A stretch of 64,000 bases of DNA from Cyanidioschyzon merolae (taxonomy: Eukaryota): the NCBI GenBank assembly GCA_000091205.1, contig AP006489.2. One strand, written 5' to 3'. The translations under genes were made by a program, and so were the position numbers. How positions within the stretch are numbered: the stretch's first letter is position 1; each line of letters starts with the position of its first letter. Shown in pieces: positions 6,325 through 55,194 of this stretch. The notes beneath the pieces were generated by a model. It saw only the letters and a program-made list of their open reading frames with translations, made no database searches and was not told the origin of the DNA.

Positions 6325-7821
6325 GCGCTGGGCTGCGTTCGGGTTCTAGGAGGCGCGAGCTAGGTGGCATGTGTTTGTAAAATGCAGAAGGCACACCGCA
6401 GTCTCGCCCGGCATGTAAACCGCATCGATTAGAAATGGTTGCAGTCTCGTACACCCAGTGACGGAAGCGACGCGTGTCAAGTCGCGGGCTCCATCACTCG
6501 GATCGTCGCACGGGAGCTGCTAGCGTCGCTTTTTTCCTTCACGGGGATTGCAGTGACCATCCGACGCGATTCACGACTTTTAGGTACGCGGCAATCCGAA
6601 GGCGTCAGGGGTTTGGCTGCCCCCTCGATCTCGCGCCTCGACAGGTACGAACAAATTGCTGCATGGAAGAGTCGCGATCCTTATGCAGAACCCGCGGGGC
6701 TCGCTGGGGTTGCCAGCGACCCGCGCACGACGCGACGGCGCGCTCAGAGGCCGTTCACGAGAATCGGACGCGCTCCGTTAGAGGCGCGAAACGCATCTGA
6801 CGATACACAGCGTATGCTTCAAGTCAGTAGCAGGGACCCGGTGGCGTTGATAACGGTCCTCTGATGTTTTGAATCAAAACATTGAGACGAACAACAGCCG
6901 ACTGCACATGGACGTGCGCAAAACCTACCAACACCTGAGCGAGCACCAATCGACCGAACTCGAGTGCTTCGCAAGAGCAGAAAACACATGCACGTAGAGC
7001 TGCGTCGCGAATACGCAGCTCCATTCGTCACGCTAGACGCGGGGGAAACGCGTCTCGCTGACGGGACACGTTGCGCAATGTGTGTCATGCATGCGTGCTC
7101 GGATGTGTGCAATGGAGGCTGGGATGGAGTATTCCAAACAGAACATTTACAAACAATGATCATTGCAAGAGCATGCTTTGTTGCGATGCACTCCTGTCGT
7201 CGTTCCGAATCTGTCATGGCTCTCGGTACCGCAGCTAAGCAGAGGAGCGCGTGTCGCCAGCTACCCATGTGGAGCCGCCGCGAGTGCGGAACGCTACCAT
7301 AGCCCCGCTTGGCTCTGCGCACTTGCCACAAGCTTTCAAGATCGATTCTTGAGATAAAAAGCGTTCATTTGGGGCCCATGCGAAGCCTGCGGGCGGCGTC
7401 TGGCGAACTGGTGCGCGCACTCAACGCGTCAGTGACGAGTTTGACACTGACGCTTGCACACAGGCCCGGATGATGCTCAGCTCCGGTGCGCAGCTTGACT
7501 CCAAGGAATCAATATTTTCAGCAGCACATACGATCAAACTAACAACTGTACTTGCGCAGTAACGGGCAGCGTTTATGAGGTCCGATAAAAGAACGCCCGG
7601 GACTTGGAGAACGTCACCGATACAGCTCGGCAACTCCTCGGTGAAAAGCGCGGCACAGCCTGAAAGTCCAGGTGTAGCAGTGGGAGAAGCCGCAGGAGTT
7701 ACAGCCTCAACAAAACGAAACATAACGAAAACGAATATAACGAGGAGTATTAACCTTCGTGCGAACATTTAGCCTCCAGGTCACTTTTGGAGAGGAAACA
7801 CACGAAACGCCGAAAAGCGTA

Positions 7822-7850
7822 TGCGTGCGCGCGTGCGTGCGTGCGTGCGC
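7822..7850. repeat. (GCGT)n microsatellite
   Basis: tgcgtgcgcgcgtgcgtgcgtgcgtgcgc is read directly from the sequence; it is intergenic. Confidence 0.9.
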
Positions 7851-7914
7851 AATCCAAACGATCCCTAAATTGGTTGCCGCTGTGCTGTCCACCAGCGCGG
7901 TGCTGTCCAGGGCT

Positions 7915-10720: not shown

Positions 10721-11320
10721 TCAATATATTTGATCTGTGGCCGCGACACTGGTCGAAGGTGTCTTGGCCGGAACACTCCGATCAAAACTGCAAGGGAAAC
10801 GAGTAACCCGCGGTTGCTCCGCTAGAATATTGCGCAGGAGTTTGTCCCACTGTGGTGGCGAAATCTCCACCGTTGCTGCAGCCTGTGCTTCTGCCTCCGC
10901 TTCGCTCATACCAGCCTGGACTAGTCGCTGCTTCACGCTGCTAGCCGCCTCTTTCAAAACCTCCGGTGGATACTCGTTACATAGATAGTATCCTACCCGG
11001 ATAAACTCCTGCCCACGATAACTGCAGGTCACGAGTACGATCGTAACCCCCGTGGCATCTTCCTCTGGTATCCGTTCTGGTCGCGGCGGTGGCACCTCCA
11101 AGACAAACGCAAAGCGCCCAGGGGTATCCGCGGGTACCAGAACAGCGTCGAGCTCCTGGTCATAAGATTCGGACGACGCTGAACCGACGTAGACGACGCG
11201 CCACTCGATGTCGTCAGAGAGCGCCTCTCGAACCTCGTACGCAATCGCAAAGCGAAGGTTTGAGAGAAAGGGTGCTGGGTTATTTTCCACTGCCACAGAG
11301 ATTATGTCTACAGCAGCCAT
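10721..11320 (-). CDS. ASF1: Histone chaperone ASF1 (anti-silencing function 1).
   Basis: MAAVDIISVAVENNPAPFLSNLRFAIAYEV...DIEWRVVYVGSASSESYDQELDAVLV...VTIVLVTCSYRGQEFIRVGYYLCNEY is collinear with the ASF1 N-terminal core domain. An acidic/Ala-rich tail follows. Confidence 0.9.
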   Translation of the reverse strand: MAAVDIISVAVENNPAPFLSNLRFAIAYEVREALSDDIEWRVVYVGSASSESYDQELDAVLVPADTPGRFAFVLEVPPPRPERIPEEDATGVTIVLVTCSYRGQEFIRVGYYLCNEYPPEVLKEAASSVKQRLVQAGMSEAEAEAQAAATVEISPPQWDKLLRNILAEQPRVTRFPCSFDRSVPAKTPSTSVAATDQIY

Positions 11321-12085: not shown

Positions 12086-13312
12086 TTAACAGAAATGCGA
12101 AGGTGGCGGCGTCTCTGGCACGGCACCGCGGCTGAAATGTTCTGCTGCGAACGCTTGAGCAGATTGATCGGAAAGTTGTTGTTGTTGTTGTTGTTGCTGC
12201 TGCTGCGGCACGGTGCCTCCCGAACTACTCTGCCACTCAACATTGCCATTGGACGGATAAGCTCCCATTTCCATGCTCGATATGGACTCGTTCGTTCGGT
12301 GCGTGGGTTCCCCAAAACCTGCTCCAGCTGATACCGCCATCGACCAGGGTGCCTCGACAGGCTGGCCATATGGTGAAACGATTGACTGGTAAGCCTGCGC
12401 CATATCTAGAGAATTTTGTGGTGCGTTCAGCGGCACGGCTCCCGCTCCTTGGAACGATGTCCCCGTGTACATGCCAGAAACATTTTCAGGATGCGCAAAA
12501 CTGGACGCAGTCGCCATCGCAGGCGGCTTACCGGATCCAGAAGGCATCATCATGGATTCCGTCCCAAAACGCGTCATCGTGCTGGGCGCTTTCTCTCCAG
12601 TTGCCGAGAAGGCCCCATTCACAGCTGACGACATTGACGGCATTGGTTGCGGTGCTGTTGCAAAAGCCGCAGGCGGTGCCGTTGACATGCCCTGCATCGT
12701 TCGGGATGCCTGTCGATGCGCTTGCCGTTGCAGCATCTGCTGCGCAGTCTCGAGCGCTTGGTGGACGCGGCTTGCCTCCTGTGCCTCGATCTGTGCCAGA
12801 GAAGCGCCCTGAAAGTGCACAGCTGCATAGGCATCGGCTCGCAACTCCTCAAATGAAACATCAACGCCCTTCACCGAACTCTTCGCATACGTATTGCCGT
12901 AGCAGGAGAGGGGCCAGACCCCTGATTCGTGACCTTCGCGCCACCAGTCCCAAAGCGTCTTTCTCTGGTTGTTACCACGCCCAGCTCCCTGGTTCGTTTC
13001 GCTGCCAGCTCCACGATCCGGTGCCCTTGCTGAATCGTTAACCCCGTAGGGCGCACCACCTGACATATTGAACGCGTTTGGTGTCACCGCCGGCCAGGTG
13101 CCGCCCCCGGCTGCTGGTGTGCCCGCCGTAGGCAAGCCTGAGGCCGGGAACCCTGCCTGTCCGCTTGCCGCAGGCATGCCAGGCCCGACCTGCTGGCGAC
13201 TGGCTCTCCCACCAAGCCCCGGTGGATGTTCATATCGACAACGGTCCCCGAACTTGCAGTTCCCCTGCAAATAGTAACGACAAACAACCATAGGCAAAAG
13301 CACCTCAGCCAC
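12086..13312 (-). CDS. CCCH zinc-finger nucleoporin-like protein (Nup42/NUPL2-like). It has an N-terminal C-x8-C-x5-C-x3-H finger, a low-complexity G/S/A/M-rich body and a C-terminal polyQ.
   Basis: The N-terminus MAEVLLPMVVCRYYLQGNCKFGDRCRYEHPPG resembles the NUPL2 start [24 protein letters not shown]. The internal stretch W..PLSCYG...VSFEELRADAY resembles NUPL2 W.FSVY...ISPEELRLEY. The polyQ is encoded by (CAA)6(CAG)n at 12175-12207. Confidence 0.55.
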   Translation of the reverse strand: MAEVLLPMVVCRYYLQGNCKFGDRCRYEHPPGLGGRASRQQVGPGMPAASGQAGFPASGLPTAGTPAAGGGTWPAVTPNAFNMSGGAPYGVNDSARAPDRGAGSETNQGAGRGNNQRKTLWDWWREGHESGVWPLSCYGNTYAKSSVKGVDVSFEELRADAYAAVHFQGASLAQIEAQEASRVHQALETAQQMLQRQAHRQASRTMQGMSTAPPAAFATAPQPMPSMSSAVNGAFSATGEKAPSTMTRFGTESMMMPSGSGKPPAMATASSFAHPENVSGMYTGTSFQGAGAVPLNAPQNSLDMAQAYQSIVSPYGQPVEAPWSMAVSAGAGFGEPTHRTNESISSMEMGAYPSNGNVEWQSSSGGTVPQQQQQQQQQQLSDQSAQAFAAEHFSRGAVPETPPPSHFC

Positions 13313-13956: not shown

Positions 13957-15660
13957 ATGACATTTATAGTGCCCTCGCGAGGAGTTCGTGCCCCACAAAA
14001 GCACGCAGTGTTGCAAGCGAGGCGTCCGCGGGGACCCGGTCCCTTGACGAGGTGCTGGCGCTTGGCACCCCTGCGGGCGAGCCTCGAAAGGCCGCGCTCT
14101 GTGACCCCTGCCGACGACGACAACCAGGTGCTCGGCTCGACCAAAGTACCGACTCGGAAACGGGAACCCACAAGTGCATACAGTTACATCGACAGGGCAC
14201 GCATCCGCGTCAAGGGAGGCGACGGCGGTGACGGGTGTGTAGCTTGGCGTCGAGAGCGTGGCAACGCACGCGGTGGACCCGCTGGTGGCAACGGTGGACG
14301 AGGCGGTGACGTCTACCTCGTGGCAGACGCCGGACTAAATACTCTAGTCAAGTTCGGAAGTGTGGTTCACTTCACGGCTGAGAACGGAGAAAAGGGTCAG
14401 CCGAAAAACTGCACTGGCGCCGATGGCAAGGCGCTGGAGCTGCGAGTCCCGCTCGGTACAGTTGTCTACGACGCAGAAACGGGAGCGCTCTTGGGCGATC
14501 TTGACCAGGTTGGTGCGCGGTTGCTGGTCGCACGGGGTGGTCGCGGTGGTCGCGGCAACGCAGCCTTCAAAACGGATCGAAACCGAGCGCCCGTTATCCG
14601 CGAAAAGGGTGAACCCGGCACCGGCTGCTGGCTTCGTCTGGAACTGCGCGTGCTCGCCGATATCGGCATTATAGGGTGTCCCAATGCTGGCAAATCAACT
14701 TGGCTTGCAGCGGTGAGCAACGCGCGACCAAAGATTGCTGACTATCCCTTTACCACTCTGGTTCCGAATCTGGGCGTCTACGCTGAGAACGTTGTCCTTG
14801 CGGATATACCGGGGCTTTGCGAGGGCGCCCATCTCGGGCGAGGGCTTGGTATAGGATTTCTCCGCCATATTGAGCGCTGCCGCATGATACTGCATTTGGT
14901 TGCAGGAGATGCACCAGATCCTCTCTATGATCTACAGGCTATTCGTTTGGAGTTGGCGTTGTTCAATCCGCGTCTGGTCCAAGACAAATTGCACGTCGTG
15001 CTCTTTACGAAGATGGATTTGCCTTTGGCCCAGCAGCGTTGGAATGATGCTTCTTTCCGCGAGGCGTTCCAGAAGGCAGTGGGGCACCGCCGGATTGCCG
15101 CCGTATCAGCAGTTACGGGCCAGGGTGTAGAGGAAACCATGCAGCGTGTATGCAAGCTCCTGGAGAAAATCCCGCAACCTGACCGCTTAAGCTCGCTGCC
15201 TGATGCATCTCCTGGTGTGCTAGAGCAATCGCGGAGCCCAGCAGCCGCTGATACCTTTCGTGGTGATCATGACGCCATCGGTGCGAGCGTGGATGGCACG
15301 TTCCGTATCCAAAAGGAGCGAATGGCAGATGGCCAGCGGCGCTGGCGCATACTGGGTTTGCCCAAGCTCGAAAGACTCGCTGTTATGACGGACTGGGCGT
15401 ACCCAGAGGCCGTGGATCGCTTTCAGCGAGTACTTCGAGCGCTGGGGGTCACGGAGGCGCTCTCGCAGAGCGGCATTCGCGCCGGTGATGTTGTCGTCAT
15501 TGCGAATATTGAATTCGACTATACCCCCGATGATAATGTGTTTTACCAGAATGCCCTAGAGGACGGTGTGGACTTGTTTAAGGACACAAGCGATGTCGAG
15601 ATCGCTGTGGATGAGGATCACGATTATCGTGAATGGAGCGAAAACGTTTCGCAATCATAG
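13957..15660 (+). CDS. OBG: Obg/CgtA-family GTPase of bacterial (organellar) type with a C-terminal OCT domain. The N-terminal roughly 70 aa look like an organellar targeting extension.
   Basis: Obg fold YIDRARIRVKGGDGGDGCVAWRRE..GGPAGGNGGRGGDVYL; G1 GIIGCPNAGKST; YPFTTLVPNLGV; G3 DIPGL; G4 FTKMD; C-terminal FRIQKE...WRILGLPKLERLAVMTDWAYPEAVDRFQRVLRALGVTEAL = Obg C-terminal domain. Confidence 0.9.
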   Translation: MTFIVPSRGVRAPQKHAVLQARRPRGPGPLTRCWRLAPLRASLERPRSVTPADDDNQVLGSTKVPTRKREPTSAYSYIDRARIRVKGGDGGDGCVAWRRERGNARGGPAGGNGGRGGDVYLVADAGLNTLVKFGSVVHFTAENGEKGQPKNCTGADGKALELRVPLGTVVYDAETGALLGDLDQVGARLLVARGGRGGRGNAAFKTDRNRAPVIREKGEPGTGCWLRLELRVLADIGIIGCPNAGKSTWLAAVSNARPKIADYPFTTLVPNLGVYAENVVLADIPGLCEGAHLGRGLGIGFLRHIERCRMILHLVAGDAPDPLYDLQAIRLELALFNPRLVQDKLHVVLFTKMDLPLAQQRWNDASFREAFQKAVGHRRIAAVSAVTGQGVEETMQRVCKLLEKIPQPDRLSSLPDASPGVLEQSRSPAAADTFRGDHDAIGASVDGTFRIQKERMADGQRRWRILGLPKLERLAVMTDWAYPEAVDRFQRVLRALGVTEALSQSGIRAGDVVVIANIEFDYTPDDNVFYQNALEDGVDLFKDTSDVEIAVDEDHDYREWSENVSQS

Positions 15661-18062: not shown

Positions 18063-20003
18063 TCACCCACCTGCATACAAGCGTTGTATTTGCGCCGCAT
18101 AACGAGCTTCGATGAATGCGCGTCGCAACTTCAGCGTAGGTGTCAGAGTCTGATCTTCCACAGAGAACGCGCGGGGAACAATCCAAGCCTTGCGCACTTG
18201 CGCAGCTCGAGAAACGGCTTGTCTGTTCGCTTTCGCAAGACCCTGCTCCACGTACCGATTCCAGGGTGTACCAAGAACTGCGGCTTCCGCCGATGCATCC
18301 GCTGCCGTCCGAGTCGCGTCATCTACGGCGGCTGCTTCACCGATGAGCGTCTCCCCGTCAGGCGCAGTCTGCAACGACAGGAGACAGCTGAGGAATTTTC
18401 GCCGATCACCGATCACCATGGCGCGCGCTACTGCCGGCATGGCGCTCTCCAGGGCTCGTTCTAGTGGCGCTGGTGCAATATTCTCGCCTCCAGCTGTCAC
18501 TATAAGCTCTTTCAAGCGTCCAGTGATCCAAATGAAACCGTCACGATCGATTGTCGCCAGATCACCGGTACGGAAAAAGCCATCGCTCGTAAAAGCAACA
18601 GCAGTACTCGCCGGGTCATTAAAGTACGCTTTGAACACGTGCGAGCCCTGAACCTGCAGCTCCGATGTCTCGGCATCGACGCGAACGCAGGTTCCCGGTA
18701 GCGGCCGGCCGGAGCTCCCCCTTCGGTACGCCCTCGGGAGGTTGATTGCAATCGGACCGGTGCATTCAGTCATTCCGTAGAGATCGCAGATTCGCATGCC
18801 CAGAGAGCTGAAGTAGTCGAGGGTTTCAGGTCCCAAGGGTGCAGCAGAGGAAATCAGGATGCGAGCTCGATCGAGACCGAGCGCTCGGCGAATAGGCCAA
18901 AGCACGAGGCGGTCGGCCAGCCACGCCGACCAGCTTGGACACCAATCTGCTTGTGGATATTCCCAGCGCTGGATATCGCTGAACATGACGCGCTTCGCCC
19001 AGGTGGAAACGTGTCGGATTGGTGCCGGCTGACTCGCGGCGACCTCTTGGAGCTGTTCGGCGATGCGCTCCCAGACCCGCGGCACACCGACGAAAAAGTC
19101 TGGTCGCACCGCTCGCAGCGTTCGCACGAGAGAACGGGAACCAGGCTGCAGCACGTCGGGATCTGCAAAGTGTAGAGAAAATCCGACAATGGCGGGTCCG
19201 ATAATGTCGAGCATGGTAGCCGCCACGTGCGACAGCGGCAGGTACGAGACGCCACGCCAGGTCTCATCGAACTGAACGAGCCTCCGTGCGCTCTCAATGA
19301 CAAACAGGACGTTACGATGCGAGAGCGCGACGGCCTTGGGCGTCCCGCTGGTTCCCGAGGTAAAGACAATCAGCGCTGCTTGGTCAGCGTTCTGAGCGCG
19401 ATGGCGGTGCATGAGAACGATGTTCCCGTCGTCCAGTGAGCATCCTGCATTCAGAAATGTATGCCACGACATGACACGAGTATCCATGGACGCAAACGTT
19501 TTTGTTTGCGAGACGGTGTCATCGTCGGGACTCGTCGCTGTACTTGGCCATAAGACGAGATGCTTTAGTTTCAGGTCTGGGAATGCTGCTGCTGCTGCAG
19601 CTGCTGCTGCTGCGACGAGGCGCATTCCACAGTCGCCATCCTCCCCAAAAGCGACGACGCACCGACCAAGCTCTAGCAGCTGCCGACAGCTTGCCTCACT
19701 GCTCGTCGGATAGATGCCGTATGGTAACACGCCAGCAAGCAACGCACCCCAATACGCTATAAGGTATTTGGGGCTATTCGAGCCGAATATGGCCACCGTT
19801 GCCCCAGGTTCAACTCCCAGAGCGACCAGGGCACGTGCCACGTCCACGCACGCTTCATAGTATTCAGCATAGGTGTAGTGGCAAGCGTTCGGCCGATACT
19901 GAACGAGCGCAGTTCGGCTTCCGTGCCGCTCAGCGGTGTGTTGAAACGCCTCGGGCAGCGTTGATGACAAGTTATTAGCCGTCGACATGGTCACCGGAAG
20001 CAA
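18063..20003 (-). CDS. Long-chain acyl-CoA synthetase (AMP-binding, fatty-acid-CoA ligase) with an internal poly-Ala insertion.
   Basis: AMP-binding signature FTSGTSGTPKAVALSHRNV. Also ..YGMTECTGPIAI, FRTGDLATIDRDGFIWITGRLKELIVTAGGENIAP, and the C-terminal WIVPRAFSVEDQTLTPTLKLRR typical of ACSL enzymes. Poly-Ala is encoded by (GCT)n at 19584-19613. Confidence 0.85.
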   Translation of the reverse strand: MLPVTMSTANNLSSTLPEAFQHTAERHGSRTALVQYRPNACHYTYAEYYEACVDVARALVALGVEPGATVAIFGSNSPKYLIAYWGALLAGVLPYGIYPTSSEASCRQLLELGRCVVAFGEDGDCGMRLVAAAAAAAAAAFPDLKLKHLVLWPSTATSPDDDTVSQTKTFASMDTRVMSWHTFLNAGCSLDDGNIVLMHRHRAQNADQAALIVFTSGTSGTPKAVALSHRNVLFVIESARRLVQFDETWRGVSYLPLSHVAATMLDIIGPAIVGFSLHFADPDVLQPGSRSLVRTLRAVRPDFFVGVPRVWERIAEQLQEVAASQPAPIRHVSTWAKRVMFSDIQRWEYPQADWCPSWSAWLADRLVLWPIRRALGLDRARILISSAAPLGPETLDYFSSLGMRICDLYGMTECTGPIAINLPRAYRRGSSGRPLPGTCVRVDAETSELQVQGSHVFKAYFNDPASTAVAFTSDGFFRTGDLATIDRDGFIWITGRLKELIVTAGGENIAPAPLERALESAMPAVARAMVIGDRRKFLSCLLSLQTAPDGETLIGEAAAVDDATRTAADASAEAAVLGTPWNRYVEQGLAKANRQAVSRAAQVRKAWIVPRAFSVEDQTLTPTLKLRRAFIEARYAAQIQRLYAGG

Positions 20004-21994
20004 CTTGTTTCAGATATAGACGTCCGTCGTTGTTGTCGTCGATCGACGCGGAGCAACGAGTCACCACCGGTTTCCGCTGCCGGACTCGAAGCACCTACCG
20101 TTGTCCACGTCACGAACGACCATAGAGTCAATAGGCACTATCCAGTTTCCTGTTCGGTGTCGTTTTCGTTCAGGGCACCAGATCGAGACAGTTTCCTGGT
20201 AGAGTACGCGGGGCGTCGAACGGCAATGCTAGTTTTCAGAAGTACAGCGTACGCGTCTCGCGACTGAATACAATCAAGTTTGGGTGATTCGGGGGCTGCT
20301 CTAACGAAAACGCTGCAACCTGATACCAGTAGATTCGACTAATCTTTCGTTCTGGTCCAATGAATCAAACCATCACGCCACTGGATGTATGATGGCTATG
20401 GGGAACTAGGAGCGTGACTCCTGTTCCTCGCTGAGTACGACAAGGTTCCAGAGACTCTGGACGAATCGCTCCTTCGGGAGTAGGAGCCGGAACCAACCAG
20501 CGGACCTTGCGAGTGCGGAGGCTCTCTCTTACACCCGCTACAACGCTGAGTGCTTCGTTACGCTGTTCATGCAGAGACCGGAAAGCTTTGCGGTGCTTTA
20601 TGGACGTCAACTCTACACAAGACCAGACGTGTCGGACACACGCTAGCTAGATTCGGTTTCTCCAACGGCATGCGCTGCGATCTGTTGTTCTTGTAGCGCG
20701 CCTGCCGAGTCCATTGCGAAGACATCATCAACGAGCGCCGCAACGTTTTGGGTACGGTAGCCACTCTAGGCATGCAATGGGTCATGGCACGAGCGCGGGT
20801 GTATCCACAGTGTCGTGCGATGGACTCGAATTCTGCGCTCTAGCAACCACAATAGCAACAGCATTACTCCCTGTACGCGCTAGGAAGCGACTCCAGCGGC
20901 GCTGTGTACCTCGTGTAATCATCGCTGAGCGCTACACGGTATCGAGCGACCACCACAGGCGCACCAACTGGCCGATCTGTTCGTCCGCAGCCGGAAAGCC
21001 CACATACGCCCGCAACGAGGTCATAGATGCGCAAACTCGGTGCAGGAGCGTTGCTGCATGGTGCACGTGCCTACGCTCGGCGTGCGTCTCTTGCGCATGC
21101 GCTGATGCCAGCGCCGGTGAATCCGGATACGCGGCCCGCATCGACATGGAGGCTGGTGCTAGGACCCAGTGCGTAGCGCGCCTTCACGCCATCGAGACTT
21201 GTGGAAACTGGTGTCGTGATTTCGGCATGGTTCTCTTCCGAGCAAGGCACGGATTTGCTGGCGGGTTTAGCGGAATGCATTCGTGCAATGCAAAACAAAC
21301 GTAGCAGATCCACGGTCTATTGCAGCATTTCGATAGCGTTGCGTACGACTTTACCTGTTCCCGCATTCGTGGACTGTCCATGATACGAATGGACCCCGAC
21401 GCATAAACAAAGCGCACCACTATAGTATTGCACGGACCGCATTTTCGCCACTGTCCTGCTATGAAGTCTTTCAAACGGGCATAGACTGCCTCCAGCACGT
21501 TGTTATGATCCGGCACATGCCAACGGCAACGCGTCCGACACGAACACCCGACGCATCCAGCGGTGCATCGTGTAAGCGAATCGGGCGCCACCATCCATTC
21601 CAAGCTCCACCTGGAATCAGGAGCTCGTCCACCAGACGCCAAACAGCTCAGAAACTAGACGTAGAGGCAGCGCAGAGATGCATCTAAATGGGGAATCCTC
21701 GCATCGCACAGAGAGAGGCACACCGGGATCGTTTCCAGCTACCTGCGTGGAGCATGCGATCACGGCAAGCGACCGTCAAACTCGGCACTCTGCTCGCCTT
21801 TGTATGGACAGCTTCCGCGATATACCGATACGTCGCACATCCACTGTAACGCTCGTCGGATTCGCTGCCTGAAAATTCGCCCCAATGCATCATACAGCAT
21901 CGCAGTGGAAACGCTGAGCGACAGCCGCTCAGCGTGCAACGACTGGGTGTGCATGCGCCCACGGCCGAGTGGATCTCCCTGCTTCGCTGCGATC

Positions 21995-22111
21995 GCGCAC
22001 GCACGCATACGCACGCACGCATACGCACGCACGCATACGCACGCACGCATACGCACGCACGCATACGCACGCACGCATACGCACGCACGCATACGCACGC
22101 ACGCATACGCG
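21995..22111. repeat. 14-bp minisatellite (cgcacgcacgcata) x about 8, immediately upstream of DXR.
   Basis: Perfect tandem copies are read directly. They produce the [14 protein letters not shown] peptide repeats in the upstream part of the DXR ORF. Confidence 0.9.
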
Positions 22112-22225
22112 CTGTTGCAGAATACCGTACACTGTTCAGCGCTGCGCTGCTGCACCGAGGCCGGCTACCAGCACACTCTTCTCGTGCATGGTAAGCGTTG
22201 TTTTAATATTGAATTGAACCAATAT

Positions 22226-23713
22226 ATGAACGCTAAACCCGAACAGCTTCAAGCGCGAGGCGGTGCTTTGCTGACTCCTCGAAGCTCAACCGCGCCGGGT
22301 GCTTTCCTTGCGGCATCGGCTGGCGTGCGCCTCTTGGTTGGCGGGTGGACAACTCGTGGAGGCACCTGTCGTCAGCGCAGTACGCGTCGTACCCCGGCCC
22401 GATGGGTCTGCATGGACCAGGGTGCTGCACCCGTGGGCACGAGGAAGAGCATCCAGGCGCTGGAGAACGCGCTCCAACCTACGGCGTTCCACCGACGCGT
22501 CACCATTTTGGGAAGCACCGGGAGCATTGGAACGCAAACCCTGGATATTGTGCGCTCTTGTCCGGACAAGTTTTCTGTCGTAGCGTTGGCGGCGAACGGT
22601 TCAAACGTAGAGCTTCTCGCGGAGCAGACGCACGAGTTTTCGCCCGAACTTGTCGCTATACGTGATACTGCCCGCCTCGAGACCTATCGGGAGGCGCTGC
22701 GGCAGCGTGGCGTCCCGGAACCGCCGCACATTGTTGCTGGCGAAGACGGTGTCGTCGAGTGTGCGCGATACGGTGACGCAGATGTCGTTGTCACTGGGCT
22801 TGTTGGATGTGCGGGTCTCTTGCCCACAGTTGCTGCGATCAAGGCCCGAAAAGACATTGCGCTGGCGAACAAGGAAACACTGATCGCGGGCGGCCCCGTG
22901 GTCGTGCCCCTAGTTCACGAGTACGGCATTCATCTGACTCCAGCCGACTCAGAGCACTCTGCGTTGTTCCAGTGTCTTCAGGGTGCGCCAGATGGCGCGC
23001 TTCGGCGCATCATTCTCACGGCGTCTGGTGGTGCATTTCGCGACTGGGATGTTTCGCGCTTAGCGCATGTGACTGCTGCAGATGCGCTCAAGCATCCGAA
23101 CTGGAACATGGGTCCGAAAATCACTTGCGATTCGGCGACGCTCATGAACAAGGGTCTGGAGGTTATTGAAGCGCATTTTCTCTTTGGCATCGATTACGAC
23201 GCCATCGAAATTGTCATCCATCCCCAGTCGATCATTCATTCGGCAGTCGAGTTTCAGGATACGAGCGTTCTCGCTCAACTCGGATGGCCAGATATGCGTC
23301 TTCCACTGTTGTACGCGCTGTCCTGGCCTCATCGGCTTCGGATTGAGACGTTTCGCCCACTGGATCTCGTTCAAGTGGGAAGTCTAACTTTTCGCGCGCC
23401 TGACCACGACAAGTATCCATGCATGCTTCTCGCGTACGCTGCGGGACGCCGTGGCGGTACCATGCCGGCGGTGCTGAACGCGGCGAACGAGGTCGCGGTG
23501 GAGCTTTTCCTGCGTAACGAACTGGAGTTTATGGGGATTCCCGCGGTCATCGAGCGCACCATGCAGCGGCATGACACAAGCGACTGGAAACAAACACCTA
23601 CTTTGGATGATCTCATTGCTGCAGATGCTTGGGCGCGTCGCACGGCACGAGAGGAGGCCGCGAAGCGCCCGATCTACCCCGCCGGGGCTAACCTGGAGAC
23701 GCAAAAGACGTAG
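22226..23713 (+). CDS. DXR: 1-deoxy-D-xylulose 5-phosphate reductoisomerase (DXR/IspC, MEP pathway). The start is ambiguous: the ORF is open from 21800, through the minisatellite. ATG 22226 gives a roughly 60-aa presequence and ATG 22412 lies just upstream of the catalytic core.
   Basis: [141 protein letters not shown] are collinear with bacterial/plastid DXR. Confidence 0.9.
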
Positions 23714-26620
23714 GAGAGCACCACGCTCGACCAGCTCGCCGACGATCCCTGGCCTGAGACGCATCGGCGGGAACGCTGTAGTGGCGATGAGGTGAACGAC
23801 TGCAAATCTCGATCGCTGGCTACGCTGCGGGTACTGGTCGTTGCCCTCACGAGAACTCGGACCGGATCTTGGCTTGTTGATGATGGGCATACAATGCTAT
23901 TGGACAACGACGGGATGGCATTCACCCAGAGGCCTGTTGTCGTCAACATCTGTCTTGGCCGTGTTCAGGAAGGAGCAACGCTCGCGCTGCAGCAAGCGGG
24001 GGTGCCTCTACACAATAGAGCCGTATCTAAAGCAGGACAGCATCGCTATGTCAACGCGGTGTCTCTCGCTTATACGTAGCACTATCGAAGAATGGAGCAC
24101 CATGCTGTGCCATCGATTGCTCGGGAAAAACGTTCCCGATGTGTAGATACATGGCGCTCCAGCTTTCTTTTATCGCCGAATCGTACCTGACCAGTACATT
24201 GATCCAGGGGAGAATGCAGTCCCCTCTCCCATTCATGGTCACCTTTTTTTAATCGAGGGTGTTCGGAATTTCAGCACACTGTCCGTACTGAATACAAAAC
24301 CGTTTCCTTGAAAGCGCGCTCGACTTTAGCTGCCGGACGCTCCCGAAGCATGAGACAGATCCGGATGTTGATTGAGGCGTTCGGCTCTTGGTTCGGACAC
24401 TGCTTTTCCGCATCGGTGCAGCGGAGCCTGACCATAGAAAGCCCCTCAGCTTCCGATTGCCACGCCATGTGACTTCCAGCCAGCTTACCACGCCTCATCT
24501 CACGCATCCGGCTCCGTTTCACGCCCTTCTTCTATACCTGTTTCAGCGTGCACCCGTGCTCGTGATCCGTGCACGTCGTCGTCTTGAACGCATCAACGCG
24601 AATCGTACAGAATCGGTTCCTGAACTCGTTGAAGGCTCTCGTGTAAGGAGCAAGCGTGCCGTCCCGGCGTGGCACTGTACGTCCAGCACCAGAGGATACA
24701 ATTAAGCGATACGATTCGTCGGTAATATCCGTTCCCAACTCATTGACCAAGTTATCGAATGCAAGTTTCTTGCTTCTGTACAACAGTGACTCTAGGCTAG
24801 CAGAGCGCTCTCTCGTGTACGTTTGCCAAATATCGTCCGTGCGAGTTCTTCGGACGCCCAGAAACGCGCTAGAAAAGGCGCACGATACATTCGCTGCATG
24901 CTCGATACAGCGCACAGAGCGTCGAGGTAGGTGCTGATATTTCCCTCCATCATTCCACTTGTTCATATGCGTCTTGGCCTCGCTCATGGCGGACGATCGA
25001 TCGTGCCGGGCCCTGGAAAGTTTGAATAGCGTGAACTGCTTTCGTAGCGGGTGTTTGGCACCGTTCTCTTGATTTTAGGGGTGCGGCGGCGACGGTGGCT
25101 ACGATGTTCTAATAAGCGGGGTCCACGCTCTTTACGGACTGAAGCTCTCTTCGTCTACCCTGAATGATTGAAGACGAGTCTCGTTTGCCGGTTTGATACT
25201 TTTTGGCCCCGGTGCGGTAGGATTTTCGTGAATCGCCGGGATAGCGCCGCGACGCGGCAAACGACTCCGAGAAGCACAAGTGCAAACCTCTGACCCGACG
25301 ATCAGACCGAATTGCGTCTTCTGCACCGTGTATCAATTGTACTGTTGCACGCAAGCTTGATGAAAGAGTTCCGCAAGAATTTGGACGGTAGACAGTCCTG
25401 CGTCCCGAACTCCGAGGAAGAGCTGCTTGACGAGGCTCATCATGGCATGAGGAGCTAAGCAACTAAGCCTCGAGTCAGAAGCTACGGGATCCGTCATTCG
25501 CGTCCTGCATCCTGCATTTTGAAACATTCTCCATGTTTATTTTTCTGGATATGAGATCTTGACACTGCGTCCGGAATGACTCTACCGTTGGTTCCAGTGC
25601 CTGCTCGCCCCCGTCTTTGTCGATCTGTCTCGTTCTTGTCAGATAGAGTCTGCTCCATTTCTTTTTCTTGGCAAAGTGGCATGGATGGGTTCGCTAGACT
25701 CCACGTCCGTTTCTCCCTCGGGATACAGGCGCACTGGATGGATCCTGACACTGAAATCCATCCCCTCTTTGTGTGTACCACTCCTCACGCGCCGTTTCGT
25801 TGTCTTCTCCGATGCGAGCACAGCTGCGGACCGTGCGCACCGCTCCGCTGCCTCCCGCGAACGCGAAGAGAAGCGACACAGCACACCGGGGGCCGGCGAA
25901 GCCAGAGAGCAACGAATGGATGAACGGTTTCACCGATGCGAACGAGTGTCCCATTGATTTGAGAGGGTGAAAATAACGTTTGTCAACATCGAAGACGTCT
26001 TCGACTGGGTTGATCCATGGGCAATAGCACGATAAGGAGAGCAGCGCAACATGAATGTCGATTGTGCACTACGCAACCGTTCCGCATTGATCGAAAGCGA
26101 CGTTATCTAAGAACGGAACAGAAGAAGGCGGGAAGCTCAAGCTACGCTTCGTGTTTCTTGGATCGCTGAGCTACGAAAAGATCTGGTATGTATGTCGATT
26201 TGTAGGCGACCACACGATTGAATCGCTTCTAGTCCTGGTGGCCTCGTAACGGCCAATCGTACCTTGTTTGCGATCAGCGGCCCGCCAGTGTTTGAGTAGT
26301 CGTATTGAGGTCTACCGTTTTCGGTGCATACAGGCTCGGTGAATGCGACAAACATCCGTCTGTCCTGAGGTAAGCGTTCGTGCTTCAGTGCGACACCGAT
26401 TCTGAGCAGTTCTACAAGCGACACTTGTCATCGAAGCGCCTTGCTTTTTCTTTCCATCTGTGTCTCTTCATCACCGTTCGGATCTATATTATGCGAGCTT
26501 TATATTCTGTGGCTTTTCGACAGTATACCTAAAAGGACGCACCGCGTGCAATGGACTGACGAGCAGACAGTCACATGGGCAGTGTTTGGCGATTCTATCT
26601 TTGGGAGCACGACCTTCGGG

Positions 26621-27220
26621 CTATGCACGAACAGAAGCGTCATTCGTGCACCAGATGAGCATAGAGTGACTGACGCGTAAAAGCGATGCTCTTTTTCGTA
26701 GGCTGGTAATGACAGCATCCCAAATCTCAGCAACATTGCTTCGATCCACTGAATTCATTCCTTTTATTGAATACTTGCGAGAAAAACATACAAGAAGAAA
26801 TAGGGCTTGCTTTAGAGGGGTATTCCAGAGCGCATGGCCCCAGCTATAACGCCAGCGTTTCTCGATGTCGCCCTTGTGTCGATATCGCTGACCCGTTGCG
26901 TGCTGCCGGAGACAGACTGCTTGGAAAAAACGACCTCCATCGGTGCACATCTGCTTCATCCACGCAAAAATAAAATCGAACAGTTCCTCTGACCTACCTC
27001 GGACGTATGCGATGAAGCTTGGGTGCCTTTCCACTGTCAGCGACAAGAGTCCCCGTGGGCTCTTCTCTGAAGGATTCCTTTTTCGTTCGCTTGTCTCAGA
27101 CTCGAAATACTCTGGTCGTTTCTGTTCCGCAAGCTCCATCATCAGCAGTCGAAAGTCGTTGACGGCAGCGTGAATATCCCAAATTGGCAGCTTCAGGCTG
27201 TTTCTGACCATTTCGTGCAC
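26621..27220 (-). pseudogene. Longest member (199 aa) of a chain of short, frame-shifting minus-strand ORFs spanning about 24.0-28.5 kb in a lower-GC island. It may be an exon of an intron-containing or degenerate gene.
   Basis: Consecutive same-strand ORFs (24532..24987, 25109..25462, 26621..27220, 27268..27657, 27639..28055, 28113..28487) abut or overlap in different frames. No family was recognised and the local GC is clearly lower than in the flanking genes. Confidence 0.2.
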
Positions 27221-28755
27221 AGGCCAAAGCTGCGGTGGACTCTTCGCTTGCCGTGTTCATCTTCTTCCTACCAAGCCTCGATGTGCATTTCGCAGTGTTG
27301 ACACCTGGTGAGGTCAGATGTTCTCATGTGTCCGCCATCACTCGTCATCTGTGGACCGGACTGTGGCGCGTAAAGACCTGCTTCATCGCACGGCACATGC
27401 TCTTGAGTGATGGCGACGGCTCGATTCGATACCCTCTCGCTTTTGCACGCCTGTCGCCGTACCCTACGATTCCGGGCTTCTTCTCGACGATACCGTCGGC
27501 GAGTGCGCTGGCCGGCGCACAACCAAGCGCACGTCTTTCTATTTGATGGAGGATCTGTGAAATGCGATACTGTGCATGATGAAACAGGTCCCGGGAGGAA
27601 ATCCGGATTACCGAACAAGTCGAGATATGTTGATCCGTCTACACTCCTAGCGTGCAAAGCGGTGACGCACGCTCCACTGGAAGCAATTGCTTTGATGACT
27701 CAAGTCGGTGTCCACGACTGTTTTCTATGTAAACAGAAGAGAAGGGGCCTCTGAAAGCGTATCCCATGAACGGTGTCATGCAGCTGTCGAATACCGATTC
27801 TTCACTGAACACAGAGAGACAAGCGCTTGTCCCAAGAGCAAAATCGATTACTTGACGTGAAAAAGTTGGTGAGCTTTCGGCATAAGCTTCTAAACAAGTC
27901 GCCAGGGACGACGCCCAGTTCGTTGCTTCGTCAATCCAGTTTTGTTCGTTGCTGCGTCGACGACTCGCCTTGCAACAGAGATATCGAAAACTTGCAGAAT
28001 GCCTGGTTTGAGCATGCTGTACATAAGGAAAGCAGAAATATGGAGGCTTGCCCATACGTAGTGCTTCCTGAGATCAGTTATTTTCGCAATCGCGGATCGC
28101 AGGCTCCGCGATTCATCTCGATTCTCGTTGCGTCACGGATTCCAGCGGAAAAGAGCGGCAGAGGTTCCGCTCCAGAATGACGACGGCGAATCCTCCAGCT
28201 ATATATGAGTTCGTCAGCTCTAATTGATACAATTTGAACGTCAAGGCTGCACATTTGATAGAAAAGTTCAGAACCGCCATCAAAACGCAGAAACAGAGCA
28301 ACCGGCTCCGTTTTTCAGGTGCATCTGACAGCCAATCGTTGTGAGCGCAGTCAGCGGCGACATCATGGATTCCGTGAAGAGGCAACCGCTCCGCATTGGA
28401 CACGCTATCGGAGATACCTTTTCTTCCAAACGATCCCATACCTGTGGAATATCGGCGGGGTTGTTTAAGAAACCCAAGTGCTCGCATCTAAGCTCGCGCC
28501 ACGTCGAGCGCACGCGCTGCACCTATCCCGCGTTGCGTATGATGCCGCTTCCCGAGACGGCCCTGCAACGCGATCGTGGACAGAAACCAGACCCCGGAGT
28601 GTCAATAATCCAGGCGCTTGGAGTCAGCAACCGGGATGCGTCGATAAATCGTGCGATTCGAGCTAGCGCTACTGATACCGCTCCGCCGGCGTCGTCGTTT
28701 TCTCTCTATTTTCTAGTACGAACGCGATTGTGTTTGTGTTTGAGTAAATCGTGCT

Positions 28756-34552: not shown

Positions 34553-35767
34553 TCAGCACGGTACCAGCCGCAACGAGGCGGGAACGCGGGCCACGTCAAT
34601 GTTCATTCGGTACGAAGGCTGTAGTAACGGATCGTTGTCGATCCGCTTGATCAGGTGATGAATCATGTCCGCTCTGAGATACTTGCGAACCAGGGCATCG
34701 ACGACGCGATTTTCAAGCCACGTATCAGGAGCGTGGCTCGGCTCGGTTTCCGCCATATCAATCTGTGGACTCGAGTCTGACGAATCTGGTGATAGGATCG
34801 AAGAAGATGACTGCGCGGATAGCCGAGGCAGGAGACGTGGCGTTTCGTGGACCTCACGAGGGCGCCAGTCTCTGTGTGATCGCTCGGTATCGAGCGCCGT
34901 CGGTTCCCGGTGCCATTTGCCATATCCATTAACCACACTGGACTGTAGCTCGTGTGCAAGTCGATCTAGTTCTGCTTTCAAGCGCTGCGATTGCATTGCT
35001 GCTGCTTGCAGAGCAACATTCGCACTCAGTTGCTTGCGCGCTGCTCTGAATCCATACGCGGAAGATTCCCTACACGTCGGCGAATACCGTCGCCTTGAAC
35101 CCGCTTTCGTCGTCACGGCTGCCGGACCCGGTGTCGGCCAGTCATGATCTATGGGGGTATCCGCGGGCTGCCTCGGGGAAATCGTGGAAATGCTCCCGTC
35201 TGAGAGCATCGTGTCGGGTGTCGCTCGTGACGGTGTTTGTCGCGGCTCTGCGGGGTGAGTTCGCTCCCCAGACCGCGCTTTGCGAGCAAGCCGCCTGGTT
35301 TCAATCACCGTTGGCGTGGAAGCAGTGCTCGGAAAAGATGTGGTGTCTGTTAGAACAAATGAATCACTGTCGAATAGACTACTAGCGAAACTCAAGTCAA
35401 CAGTGCTGAGCTCCAAATCAGCTGGTTCCGTCGACCGCGCTATTACTCTTTCCGTTTGTTGCGCAGGTCGGTAGCGAGACGCCCCGGCGCGTACGGGTTG
35501 GTGCTCCCGCTTACCGCTGGGAGAGGCACTTCGACTGATAGCATCCTCTTCCTCCTCATGTTCTTCCAAAATTCTTTCGATCTCTTCGCTTTCAATGTCC
35601 AAGTCCTCGAGGGACAGCTCCTCCTGTAACTGCCGTAACGTGTCCTCGTCCAACAAGCCTTCGCTTTCTGCGAACAACTCGGACTCTACTTCCGAGGCTG
35701 TGCTATCATCAGAGGCCAGTAACGCATCAAAGCTGCTAGAAGCGGACACGTCACCCAGCTCGGGCAT
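34553..35767 (-). CDS. Hypothetical 404-aa protein with a highly acidic, Ser-rich N-terminal half (probably disordered) and a conserved-looking C-terminal segment.
   Basis: Uninterrupted ORF. The N-terminus is D/E/S-rich (EEIERILEEHEEEEDA). The C-terminal RVVDALVRKYLRADMIHHLIKRIDNDPLLQPSYRMNIDVARVP looks structured. No family was recognised. Confidence 0.4.
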   Translation of the reverse strand: MPELGDVSASSSFDALLASDDSTASEVESELFAESEGLLDEDTLRQLQEELSLEDLDIESEEIERILEEHEEEEDAISRSASPSGKREHQPVRAGASRYRPAQQTERVIARSTEPADLELSTVDLSFASSLFDSDSFVLTDTTSFPSTASTPTVIETRRLARKARSGERTHPAEPRQTPSRATPDTMLSDGSISTISPRQPADTPIDHDWPTPGPAAVTTKAGSRRRYSPTCRESSAYGFRAARKQLSANVALQAAAMQSQRLKAELDRLAHELQSSVVNGYGKWHREPTALDTERSHRDWRPREVHETPRLLPRLSAQSSSSILSPDSSDSSPQIDMAETEPSHAPDTWLENRVVDALVRKYLRADMIHHLIKRIDNDPLLQPSYRMNIDVARVPASLRLVPC

Positions 35768-36134: not shown

Positions 36135-36211
36135 CGCAGCTGCCTTTCAAATCGCAAGAGCGATCAGAGCAGCTGCCTTTCAAATTGCATGAGCGATCAG
36201 AGCAGCTGCCT
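36135..36211. repeat. 33-bp tandem repeat, about 2.4 copies (gcagctgcctttcaaatcgcaagagcgatcaga).
   Basis: Two near-identical units plus a partial third, about 770 bp upstream of the Tem1-like GTPase start. Confidence 0.85.
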
Positions 36212-36980: not shown

Positions 36981-37877
36981 ATGTCTGAGTGGAACGAGGT
37001 TGTCTCGCCGAGGCGCCTGGTGTCTGTCAGCCCGCACGGAGAACCAATGACTCGAGCAGAATCGCCGCTGAGAGGTAGTCCGGAGGCGCGGACGCAGCAG
37101 CACGAGGAGGTCGCGCTCGAGCTTGCGAGGGGGGATGTGCCGGCGGAGCCGACGGATGCTGTAGATGAGGCAGCAAGTACGCTAGCCGCTCAAACACTGG
37201 ACGAGAATGAGGTTGAGCAGACTCCCAGCTCACCTCCTTCGTCCTCGTCTGTGTCGATGGGATTCGGAGGCGAGGCGCCGTACCTTGCCCGTCGTCCGCG
37301 CCGATCCTCGCTAACCCTCAAAGTGGGCATGGTGGGCGATGCCGGTTGCGGGAAAACTTCCCTTATGGTGCGATACTGCGAAGGCCACTTCGACGAGGAC
37401 TATATCATGACACTAGGAGTGAATTTTCTTGAACGCTCCGTTTCTCTGCGGCACACAGACATCGTGTTCTCTGTCTGGGATCTGGGAGGTCAAAGTGAAT
37501 TCCGAACGATGCTTCCCCTGGTGACCAGTGACGCCGCAGCCATGCTTTTTATTTTCGACCTCACGAGAAAAACGACGTTGATCTCCATTCGAGACTGGTA
37601 CCAGCAGGTACGATTACTCAACGTCACAGCGGTTCCGATTCTGGTAGGCAACAAGTACGACCTGTTTATATCACTTGCGGCTGATCAGCAGGCTTCGATT
37701 GTTCGTCGAGCCCGGAAATACGCACGTGCCATGCATGCGCCGCTGGTTTTTTGCAGTGCAAGCCATTGTGTTCAAGTGCAGCGAGTTTTCAAGTTGGTTC
37801 TCGTCCGGCTTTTCGATCTTCAGCCGGCTTTCGAGCGCCAAACTGATGCAGCACGAGGCCCACTGTGCGAATGGTAG
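36981..37877 (+). CDS. Small Ras-superfamily GTPase of the Tem1/Spg1 (mitotic-exit / septation-initiation) type, with a roughly 110-aa acidic N-terminal extension.
   Basis: LKVGMVGDAGCGKTSLMVRYCEGHFDEDYIMTLGVNFLERSVSLRHTDIVFSVWDLGGQSEFRTMLPLVTSDAAAMLFIFDLTRKTTLISIRDWYQQVRLLNVTAVPILVGNKYDLF matches Spg1/Tem1 closely and in order ([39 protein letters not shown]...WDLGGQREF...LFMFDLTRKSTL...IPILIGTKYD). G1, G3 (DLGGQ) and G4 (NKYD) are intact. Confidence 0.8.
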   Translation: MSEWNEVVSPRRLVSVSPHGEPMTRAESPLRGSPEARTQQHEEVALELARGDVPAEPTDAVDEAASTLAAQTLDENEVEQTPSSPPSSSSVSMGFGGEAPYLARRPRRSSLTLKVGMVGDAGCGKTSLMVRYCEGHFDEDYIMTLGVNFLERSVSLRHTDIVFSVWDLGGQSEFRTMLPLVTSDAAAMLFIFDLTRKTTLISIRDWYQQVRLLNVTAVPILVGNKYDLFISLAADQQASIVRRARKYARAMHAPLVFCSASHCVQVQRVFKLVLVRLFDLQPAFERQTDAARGPLCEW

Positions 37878-38865: not shown

Positions 38866-39381
38866 CTAGCTTCCATGCTCATCAAAGCTTGAGCGAAACT
38901 GGACAAACTCAAGCAAACTCTTCACGAAGCACGCAAACTCGCCCGCCGAAGCAAGCACTCCCGAGAGCCTCTCCATGCGCTTCGTGCGACTCACGCGCGG
39001 CTCCACGATAAACTCTATGGTCTCTCGCTGCTGCTGAACCTGTGCGCGCAAATACTCTAGCGTAGCCTGGTCTTCTACAGAGTCTGCTGTCTGGCCGCTC
39101 GAGCTGTTGTTTACCAGAAGCGCGAGCCGCTTCGCGAACGACTCGGCGCGTGCTGCGGGGTCACGCTCGGGCACCGCGACCCCTTTCGTACGTTTCCAGG
39201 TTGGAGCGCGTTGTGCACCCAGCGTTCTGTACTGACTCGAACAGCGAGGCACATGTTCTTGGAAACACTGTGCACTACCGTAGCGCACCCCGCAGACTGG
39301 ACATCGGTACTTGCTACTGCAGTCGACGCTTGCCCCGAGTCGTGTCCCTGAACACACCTCGCAGCGCCCTGTTTTGTCCAT
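38866..39381 (-). CDS. Hypothetical small Cys-rich (zinc-finger-like) protein, 171 aa.
   Basis: The N-terminus CEVCSG...CPVCGVRYGSAQCFQEHVPRC is a C2HC/C2H2-like arrangement. The ORF is bounded by an (ACGC)n-containing intergenic region. Weak. Confidence 0.35.
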   Translation of the reverse strand: MDKTGRCEVCSGTRLGASVDCSSKYRCPVCGVRYGSAQCFQEHVPRCSSQYRTLGAQRAPTWKRTKGVAVPERDPAARAESFAKRLALLVNNSSSGQTADSVEDQATLEYLRAQVQQQRETIEFIVEPRVSRTKRMERLSGVLASAGEFACFVKSLLEFVQFRSSFDEHGS

Positions 39382-39557
39382 GAATGATGCTTCGGCTCAG
39401 TGTCTCGACGTTTCCATCAGTAGCTTGACTATGATCGAGTAGGAAGATGCTTGCCTCGTGTTTTTGAGCGCTATCCACACTGCACGCGTAGCACGGAGCA
39501 ATCCAAGCGTAATTGATCGTACGTATGGCAAGCGGTTTACGCTGCAGATTTCTGGGT

Positions 39558-39642
<85 letters not shown>

Positions 39643-39645
39643 CGT
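39558..39645. repeat. (ACGC)n microsatellite, about 21 units, in the divergent intergenic region between 38866..39381(-) and 39781..40803(+).
   Basis: A long perfect cacg/acgc run is read directly. It is flanked by a TG-rich tract at 39745-39770. Confidence 0.95.
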
Positions 39646-44706: not shown

Positions 44707-44968
44707 TGAGAATCGCAATTGATGCACATTTCGCAACTTTCGCCTGAGGGTGTATGCGTCGACAACAGTCGGAAGCAACGAAATCGGGGCTTGGAAATCG
44801 CACTTGATGCACATTTCGCAACTTTCGCCTGAGGGTGTATGCGTCGACAACAGTCGGAAGCAACGAAGTCGGGGCTTGGAAATCGCAATTGATGCACATT
44901 TCGCAACTTTCGCCTGAGGGTGTATGCGTCGACAACAGTCGGAAGCAACGAAATCGGGGCTTGAACGC
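44707..44968. repeat. Tandem repeat of about 86 bp x 3 (unit ...gaaatcgcaattgatgcacatttcgcaactttcgcctgagggtgtatgcgtcgacaacagtcggaagcaacgaaatcggggcttg).
   Basis: Three near-identical copies with 1-2 substitutions each. The overlapping ORFs show repeated peptides PTVVDAYTLRRKLRNVHQ(L/V)RF. Confidence 0.9.
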
Positions 44969-55173: not shown

Positions 55174-55194
55174 GCACGCACGCACGCACGCACC
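55174..55194. repeat. (ACGC)5 microsatellite upstream of the Rieske gene.
   Basis: gcacgcacgcacgcacgcacc is read directly. A further (CA)n is at 55283-55295. Confidence 0.8.

Follow-up and report, generated by a model that had tools for sequence, protein, structure and literature searches.

The gene for 1-deoxy-D-xylulose-5-phosphate reductoisomerase (DXR, EC 1.1.1.267) of the red alga Cyanidioschyzon merolae strain 10D, which lies within the 64,000-nucleotide stretch of DNA analyzed here (the window, to which all coordinates refer), is preceded by a perfect tandem array of a 14-bp unit, and the open reading frame (ORF) of the gene extends backwards through this array, which raises the question of where the DXR protein begins and whether the repeat is part of it. 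The frame is open from position 21800 to the stop codon that ends at 23713 and contains in-frame ATG codons at 21953, 22226 and 22412. The first-pass annotation of this DNA had recognized the open frame and the candidate starts at 22226 and 22412, both of which are real; the ATG at 21953, upstream of the repeat, had been missed, so the list was incomplete. The contention that the start could not be settled from the sequence needs to be changed as well, because comparison with the sister genus Cyanidiococcus and with environmental haplotypes favors 22226 over 22412. As judged by these comparisons, translation most likely begins at ATG 22226, the annotated start. The account that we favor, and consider quite probable, is that DXR starts at 22226 with a plastid transit peptide and that the array is an untranslated, lineage-specific variable number tandem repeat (VNTR), neutral by default. 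An ambiguous N-terminus would thus be resolved by comparative means to 22226, rather than to 22412 or 21953.

The residue that aligns with Met63, encoded by ATG 22412, is a cysteine in both Cyanidiococcus lineages (CEKGAAPVG and CHKGAAPIG), so that translation of DXR in Cyanidiococcus must start upstream of this position. The protein consists of 505 and 503 amino acids in the two Cyanidiococcus lineages vs 495 in C. merolae, and two islands within the presequence are common to the two genera, namely RxR[WF][LV]C right before Met63 and AF[LV]xxS about 35 residues earlier. Substitutions and indels were counted after 11 environmental contigs had been aligned with the window (12 haplotypes altogether). 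The 186 bp of the presequence contain no indels and 4 substitutions (2.2%), compared with 3–5% in the flanking non-coding DNA and 0.6% in the conserved mature part (8 substitutions in 1302 bp), an intermediate rate that fits a weakly constrained targeting peptide. The comparative support for the annotated start codon appears to be a new detail; a literature search for work on the transcript or the localization of the product of this gene (CMG148C) found no paper.

Tandem Repeats Finder places the array at 21996–22110 (period 14, 8.2 copies, 100% matches, score 230, unit CGCACGCACGCATA), which confirms the perfect eightfold minisatellite just before DXR described in the first-pass annotation. 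A pattern search for CGCACGCACGCATA detects these eight exact copies and one match with a single mismatch elsewhere, with 0.12 matches expected by chance. The unit consists of (CGCA)3 followed by TA, so that the array derives, as a repeat of higher order, from a CGCA microsatellite. None of the six frames of the unit contains a stop codon and, accordingly, an open frame through the array is automatic and uninformative with regard to coding.

The length of the array differs among strains. Allele lengths were measured as the distance between fixed flanking anchors in 10D and in 12 environmental contigs (L001–L011 and L026), 13 sequences in total; L001–L011 are the contigs behind the gene calls in the DXR protein cluster, and L026 comes from a metagenome DNA scan with a conserved 36-mer of the flank, which retrieved no more than two contigs, L026 (with a 60-bp allele) being the one not already in the set. 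The distance is 120 bp in 10D, 102 bp in L001 (with six perfect units), 64 bp in L010 and L011, 60 bp in L006, L007 and L026, 50 bp in L002 and L008, 46 bp in L009, and 36 bp in L003, L004 and L005, i.e., seven length alleles, with linked single-nucleotide polymorphisms (SNPs), although the environmental alleles are short-read assemblies, which can collapse repeats. Alleles differ by whole multiples of 14 bp, in some cases combined with a single 4-bp CGCA unit. The 64-, 50- and 46-bp alleles (5 of the 13 sequences) differ from 120 modulo 3, so that translations upstream of the array are shifted, and an N-terminus translated through the array could not tolerate such alleles. Within 2.5 kb, indels are confined to the array, and the intergenic DNA upstream is free of them over another 1.3 kb. 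The surmise that the minisatellite is non-coding and could be polymorphic in length is thus borne out by seven alleles, three of which break the frame.

These observations bear directly on the third candidate start. Were translation to begin at ATG 21953, the minisatellite would be translated as an N-terminal repeat of the DXR precursor; indeed, in 10D this frame is open to the DXR stop codon, yielding a 586-aa ORF, and the translated repeat, basic and devoid of acidic residues, loosely resembles a transit peptide. This scenario is nevertheless extremely improbable: the open frame follows automatically from the stop-free unit, the frame is lost relative to DXR in the 64-, 50- and 46-bp alleles, both the ATG and the array are absent from Cyanidiococcus, the DNA upstream of the array diverges at the non-coding level of about 3%, and the GenBank annotation starts at 22226. 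The ATG at 21953–21955 (plus strand) was therefore rejected as a start codon. The stop-free repeat also explains the size range of DXR proteins from metagenomes. The cluster of DXR proteins at 90% identity holds metagenome gene calls of 433, 495, 509, 558, 566, 569 and 580 aa, the long ones being calls of the prokaryotic type in which the frame is extended back across the repeat; repeats of this kind inflate prokaryotic gene calls and bring spurious 558–580-aa ‘DXR’ proteins into metagenome protein catalogues. This inflation and the frame-inconsistent, hypervariable, non-coding VNTR upstream of DXR are both new details.

Several points weigh against the favored account. The start at 22226 depends on comparative data. 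The spacer between the array and this ATG ends in an AT-rich patch (approximately 22199–22225) that contains TTTTAATATT and CCAAT; these TATA- and CCAAT-like elements are only 16–25 bp upstream of ATG 22226 and, if a TATA box is among them, transcription could start downstream of this ATG. Furthermore, the DXR presequence lacks an N-terminal phenylalanine, its first Phe being residue 27, in the AFL motif that is common to Cyanidiococcus. As for the array, the environmental alleles were assembled from short reads, a procedure that can collapse tandem repeats, and the 10D allele is the longest at both repeat loci examined, a pattern that fits assembly collapse or ascertainment bias.

The points that concern the start speak for translation from ATG 22412 (Met63), with 22226–22411 being 5' untranslated region (UTR) or promoter and only about 29 residues preceding the DXR fold: the patch could put the transcription start downstream of ATG 22226, the 62-residue stretch upstream of Met63 has no N-terminal Phe, and prokaryotic gene callers chose ATG 22412 on some contigs (the 433-aa calls). 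However, the cysteine at this position in both Cyanidiococcus lineages implies an upstream start there, protein motifs are retained upstream of Met63, the preceding 186 bp are free of indels in the 12 haplotypes and evolve more slowly than the flanking DNA, and a DXR without a transit peptide, being an enzyme of the methylerythritol phosphate (MEP) pathway, would sit in the wrong compartment. Taken together, these considerations make a start at 22412 improbable.

The points that concern the array would be explained if the copy-number differences were artefacts of short-read metagenome assembly rather than real polymorphism. Every environmental allele is shorter than the Sanger-finished 10D allele, here as well as at the (CGCA)n locus described below, and assemblers based on De Bruijn graphs often collapse perfect tandem arrays longer than k. 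Still, the alleles can be told apart by internal variants (CGTA units and a unit truncated to 10 bp), they occur with different SNP haplotypes in the flanks, identical alleles recur across independent samples and pipelines (JGI and Logan for this array; JGI, ENA and Logan at the (CGCA)n locus), and the 102-bp allele with its six perfect units did assemble, so we regard an artefactual origin of the variation as rather unlikely. The array and the second CGCA array are hypervariable and could serve as markers to distinguish strains of Cyanidioschyzon in metagenomes from hot springs.

The start at 22226 provides DXR with a presequence that was assessed by composition and motif checks. Residues 1–62 include 10 Arg and Lys and a single Asp or Glu residue (net charge +9), with 18% Ser and Thr and 15% Ala; most of the window proteins without an N-terminal extension have net charges from -8 to +4. 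Alignment shows that the DXR extension is absent from the cyanobacterial homologues. With its basic character and its many hydroxylated and few acidic side chains, this N-terminal stretch of about 62 residues would serve as the plastid transit peptide of DXR, and cleavage probably occurs close to the conserved Cys62/Met63 boundary, immediately ahead of the conserved GAAPVGT motif. Plant plastid DXR precursors reportedly consist of a transit peptide, a conserved extension and a bacterial-type core (attributed to Carretero-Paulet et al. 2002). The C. merolae protein is built similarly, with a cyanobacterial-type core following a poorly conserved basic presequence and a short lineage-conserved motif, Cys followed by GAAP[VI]GT; unlike the overall plan, the sequences of the presequence and the motif are unrelated to those of plants. 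A Phe within the first few residues is typical of red-algal plastid transit peptides (PMC2222254, PMC9407449), and plastid import in red algae normally uses this N-terminal residue, whereas the presequence of C. merolae DXR is without it.

The enzyme itself is complete. Pfam searches detect PF02670 (residues 92–223, E = 7.7e-45, profile positions 1–129 of 129), PF08436 (residues 237–320, E = 1.2e-37, positions 1–84 of 84) and PF13288 (residues 352–472, E = 7.4e-42, positions 1–114 of 115), i.e., the full three-domain architecture of DXR (NADPH-binding, catalytic and C-terminal helical domains), with the NADPH-binding domain beginning at residue 92. In the alignment with the DXRs of red algae and cyanobacteria, neither the NADPH-binding GSTGSIG motif (within L95–D107) nor the metal/substrate-binding segment DSEHS (P239–A246, PADSEHSA) shows any variation. 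The nearest sequences in a database search are near-identical environmental Cyanidioschyzon proteins, followed by those of Cyanidiococcus yangmingshanensis (84% identity) and Cyanidium caldarium (73%), and then by many cyanobacterial proteins of 390–397 aa with 66–70% identity and 77–81% query coverage; the best-hit taxonomy is accordingly red-algal first and cyanobacterial next, and not uniformly bacterial. The cyanobacterial DXRs align only from about residue 90 of the algal protein, which leaves an N-terminal extension of about 90 aa in the latter. This order of similarity, along with the extension, is as expected if the gene came from the cyanobacterial endosymbiont by transfer. The 66–70% identity to cyanobacterial DXRs allows the inference that the CMG148C protein catalyzes the conversion of 1-deoxy-D-xylulose 5-phosphate to MEP; the enzyme would be of cyanobacterial descent and would work in the plastid MEP pathway, which is present in plastid-bearing eukaryotes (PMC7912892).

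With regard to the origin of the array, Cyanidiococcus has the same gene order, Obg / AMP-binding enzyme (minus strand) / DXR / A49 (minus strand), and no 14-bp array upstream of DXR, which indicates that the array is of recent origin and confined to the C. merolae lineage, within which it would have arisen; the eight perfect copies in 10D suggest a recent expansion. The array would gain and lose 14-bp and 4-bp units by replication slippage or unequal exchange, and would remain untranslated, in a promoter or 5' flank common to DXR and the divergent AMP-binding-enzyme gene. Most likely, it is a neutral, slippage-prone VNTR. In one Cyanidiococcus lineage (L013, 3693–3859), an unrelated 70-bp tandem repeat (2.4 copies) is located 150–300 bp upstream of the DXR start, so tandem repeats appear to have arisen independently at the DXR promoter. 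A literature search on tandem repeats in C. merolae found no paper. VNTRs close to promoters occur, for example, ahead of the human insulin gene (the INS VNTR, with a unit of 14–15 bp) and in yeast, the promoters of which contain variable tandem repeats. The DXR array resembles these in having head-to-tail units of about 14 bp, no more than a few hundred bp upstream of a gene, with a copy number that varies among individuals, and differs from them in being short (2–8 copies) and derived from a tetranucleotide microsatellite.

Together with a few flanking bases, the array forms an uninterrupted alternating pyrimidine-purine tract of 119 bp (21994–22112), the longest in the window; under a first-order Markov model of the window, the longest such tract has a mean length of 17.4 bp and a maximum of 24 bp. 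Alternating (CG)n and (CA/TG)n tracts near promoters form Z-DNA. The perfect alternation of the array, which consists nearly entirely of CG and CA steps, resembles such tracts and would make it Z-DNA-prone, with the difference that each unit includes one TA step, which lowers the propensity. It is conceivable that the array is a promoter element, acting through Z-DNA or nucleosome exclusion, the length of which tunes transcription of DXR and/or the divergent AMP-binding-enzyme gene. The length of the tract, far beyond chance, and its location 115 bp upstream of the ATG are compatible with such a role, as are the point variants in the alleles, all of which are transitions that preserve the alternation, and the presence of other CGCA-type tracts 110–330 bp upstream of start codons (39556–39645, 55171–55193, 55273–55294). 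However, the sister genus Cyanidiococcus works without the array, extreme length variation combined with lineage restriction is typical of a neutral repeat, and the survival of repeats in intergenic regions is expected regardless of function; a regulatory role is thus unlikely, and we retain the neutral VNTR. A broader conjecture, to which we assign a low probability, is that CGCA-family arrays, 110–330 bp upstream of start codons, might be recurrent, fast-evolving promoter modules of Cyanidioschyzon, with copy number setting the topology of the promoter (through Z-DNA or nucleosome exclusion) and thereby tuning expression between hot-spring populations; if true, this would imply tuning of DXR, a flux-controlling step of the isoprenoid supply of the alga.

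Other repeats of the window show various modes of variation. A perfect (CGCA)21.5 microsatellite (39559–39644, within an alternating tract at 39556–39645) is located in a 400-bp divergent intergenic region, flanked by a gene for a 171-aa protein (38866–39381, minus strand) and a 340-aa ORF (ATG 39781). This locus is polymorphic as well, with 99 bp between anchors in 10D vs 55, 59, 63 and 67 bp in environmental contigs (L016–L023), and in the environmental alleles the array is interrupted by CGTT and CAAG, which gives rise to higher-order units of 16 bp. Alternating tracts of the CGCA/CACG type, 22–35 bp long, are found at 55171–55193, 55273–55294 and 7817–7851; the first two are situated between the divergent ABC1 and Rieske genes, 200–330 bp ahead of the ATG of the latter (55498). 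The coding (TGC)10 repeat at 19584–19613, which encodes poly-Ala in the AMP-binding-enzyme gene, spans 35, 32 or 29 bp between anchors, and the protein is 641, 640 or 639 aa long across strains; only whole-codon changes occur, as must be the case for any trinucleotide repeat, in contrast to the frame-breaking steps of the array upstream of DXR.

The spacer between the array and the start codon shows 6 substitutions in 115 bp among the haplotypes, the highest density in the region. It contains an out-of-frame ATG (22188) that would open a 9-codon upstream ORF ending at 22217. Because GTAAGC directly follows the same ATG and position 22246 is the last of a CAG, a cryptic first intron was considered, an in-frame intron of 56 nt that would join the Met to Leu8. 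The bases at 22188–22246 are retained in all 12 haplotypes except for an A/C polymorphism at 22205. The intron was nonetheless rejected: CTAAA, the branch-site-like element, departs from the consensus, splicing would remove only 6 residues from the product, Cyanidiococcus has no equivalent, and the GenBank protein is intronless. The intron-like signals are probably due to chance. Start-codon context was likewise discarded as a means to select the start: the AT fraction just upstream of ATG 22226 is 0.70–0.80, vs 0.35–0.65 for other well-supported starts in the window, a range from which no rule emerges.

The features of the locus and the neighboring genes are listed in the table. Translations of six ORFs of the window are identical, residue for residue, to GenBank proteins of C. 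merolae strain 10D, all encoded on a single nuclear contig of 584,452 bp, and each is a single uninterrupted ORF. These matches point to the nuclear DNA of C. merolae 10D as the location of the DXR gene and, through the CMG locus prefix, to chromosome 7.

Features of the DXR locus and other genes of the window
Feature	Position	Strand	Basis or remark
DXR	22226-23713	+	exact match to BAM79654, 495 aa from ATG 22226
DXR presequence, residues 1-62	22226-22411	+	putative plastid transit peptide
Conserved DXR body	22412-23710	+	Met63 at about the boundary between presequence and mature part; GAAPVGT motif next
DXR stop codon	23711-23713	+	TAG
Spacer from repeat to start	22111-22225	+	115 bp, promoter or 5'UTR
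Obg GTPase, bacterial-type	13957-15660	+	exact match to BAM79652; Pfam
ABC1/aarF atypical kinase	51442-53748	-	exact match to BAM79663; Pfam
Small Rieske [2Fe-2S] protein	55498-56043	+	exact match to BAM79664; Pfam
Gamma-glutamylcysteine synthetase (GCS), eukaryote-type			exact match to BAM79648
Nicotinate phosphoribosyltransferase (NAPRT)			exact match to BAM79660
ASF1	10721-11320	-	Pfam
RPL26	45946-46377	-	Pfam
CCCH zinc-finger protein	12086-13291	-	Pfam
AMP-binding-enzyme gene	18063-19988	-	divergent neighbor of DXR
Ras-family GTPase gene	36981-37877		Pfam

The gene biology of the locus is ordinary and was already known, C. merolae being a model alga with a complete genome sequence. DXR is the single-copy gene CMG148C, annotated previously (BAM79654.1 / XP_005535940.1) from ATG 22226 and listed under this name in a 2025 pathway survey (PMC12649381). 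The annotated gene is the same as the one described here, with the same 495-aa protein and chromosome context; within the reach of the literature search, neither the array nor its variation in length is covered by the annotation. The window had been assigned from the outset to the nucleus of a eukaryote with plastids, GC-rich DNA and few introns, an assignment that agrees with the six exact protein matches, the intronless genes and the GC content of 51–61% (about 56% overall). Only about 27 introns are reported to exist in C. merolae (Matsuzaki et al. 2004). Pfam searches support the canonical eukaryotic genes noted previously, ASF1 and RPL26, and add the genes for RNA polymerase I subunit A49, which is also in the DXR neighborhood, Ras and GCS, so the context is not prokaryotic; Obg, ABC1, Rieske, ASF1 and RPL26 are all found at the coordinates originally assigned. 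The Nup42-like nucleoporin fares less well: a CCCH finger protein is indeed encoded, and the label depends only on the N-terminal CCCH finger and a low-complexity tail with three FG dipeptides. A search of the whole 64-kb window (1–64000) against Rfam at gathering thresholds matched 0 families.

Three other organelle-type proteins were predicted to carry N-terminal extensions, and the Pfam domains indeed begin only at residue 78 in Obg, residue 205 in ABC1 and residue 40 in Rieske, leaving extensions of 77, 204 and 39 aa, respectively, with net charges from +7 to +10. The extensions start with MTFIVPS in Obg (F3), MFVTTP in Rieske (F2) and, when read from Met13, MFIRALPS in ABC1 (F2). This pattern of a Phe near the N-terminus supports organelle presequences and suggests that Obg, Rieske and ABC1 are plastid-targeted. 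The first 12 codons of annotated ABC1 (MRNQNRSNERGP; 53712–53748, minus strand) are AT-rich and UTR-like, and the ABC1 gene calls in environmental strains are 756 aa long, which equals the length from Met13; the real start may be Met13, 12 codons downstream of the annotated one. A metallo-beta-lactamase-fold protein (PF12706; 56515–58149, minus strand) has an N-terminal extension of about 215 aa, the first 60 residues of which carry a net charge of +9, and may be organelle-targeted as well.

Several intergenic features of the window deserve mention. A 175-aa ORF (20777–21304, plus strand) in the 2.2-kb gap between the AMP-binding-enzyme gene and DXR, which is called as a gene on metagenome contigs, was rejected: it has no Pfam match and no counterpart in Cyanidiococcus, and its 12 substitutions are distributed over the codon positions as 5/2/5, without position bias. 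On the other side of DXR, the gap to the A49 gene is about 5 kb in C. merolae (23714–28755) vs approximately 0.5–0.65 kb in Cyanidiococcus (L012, 5513–6034; L013, 5519–6167), and the extra DNA of C. merolae holds two ORFs on the minus strand, 24532–24987 and 26621–27211, without Pfam matches. Finally, the window contains an 85-bp tandem repeat (3.0 copies, 97% matches) at 44711–44963, which is upstream of, or overlaps, small minus-strand ORFs, and a 33-bp tandem repeat (2.3 copies, 95% matches) at 36136–36211, between a 404-aa ORF (34553–35767, minus strand) and the Ras-family gene.

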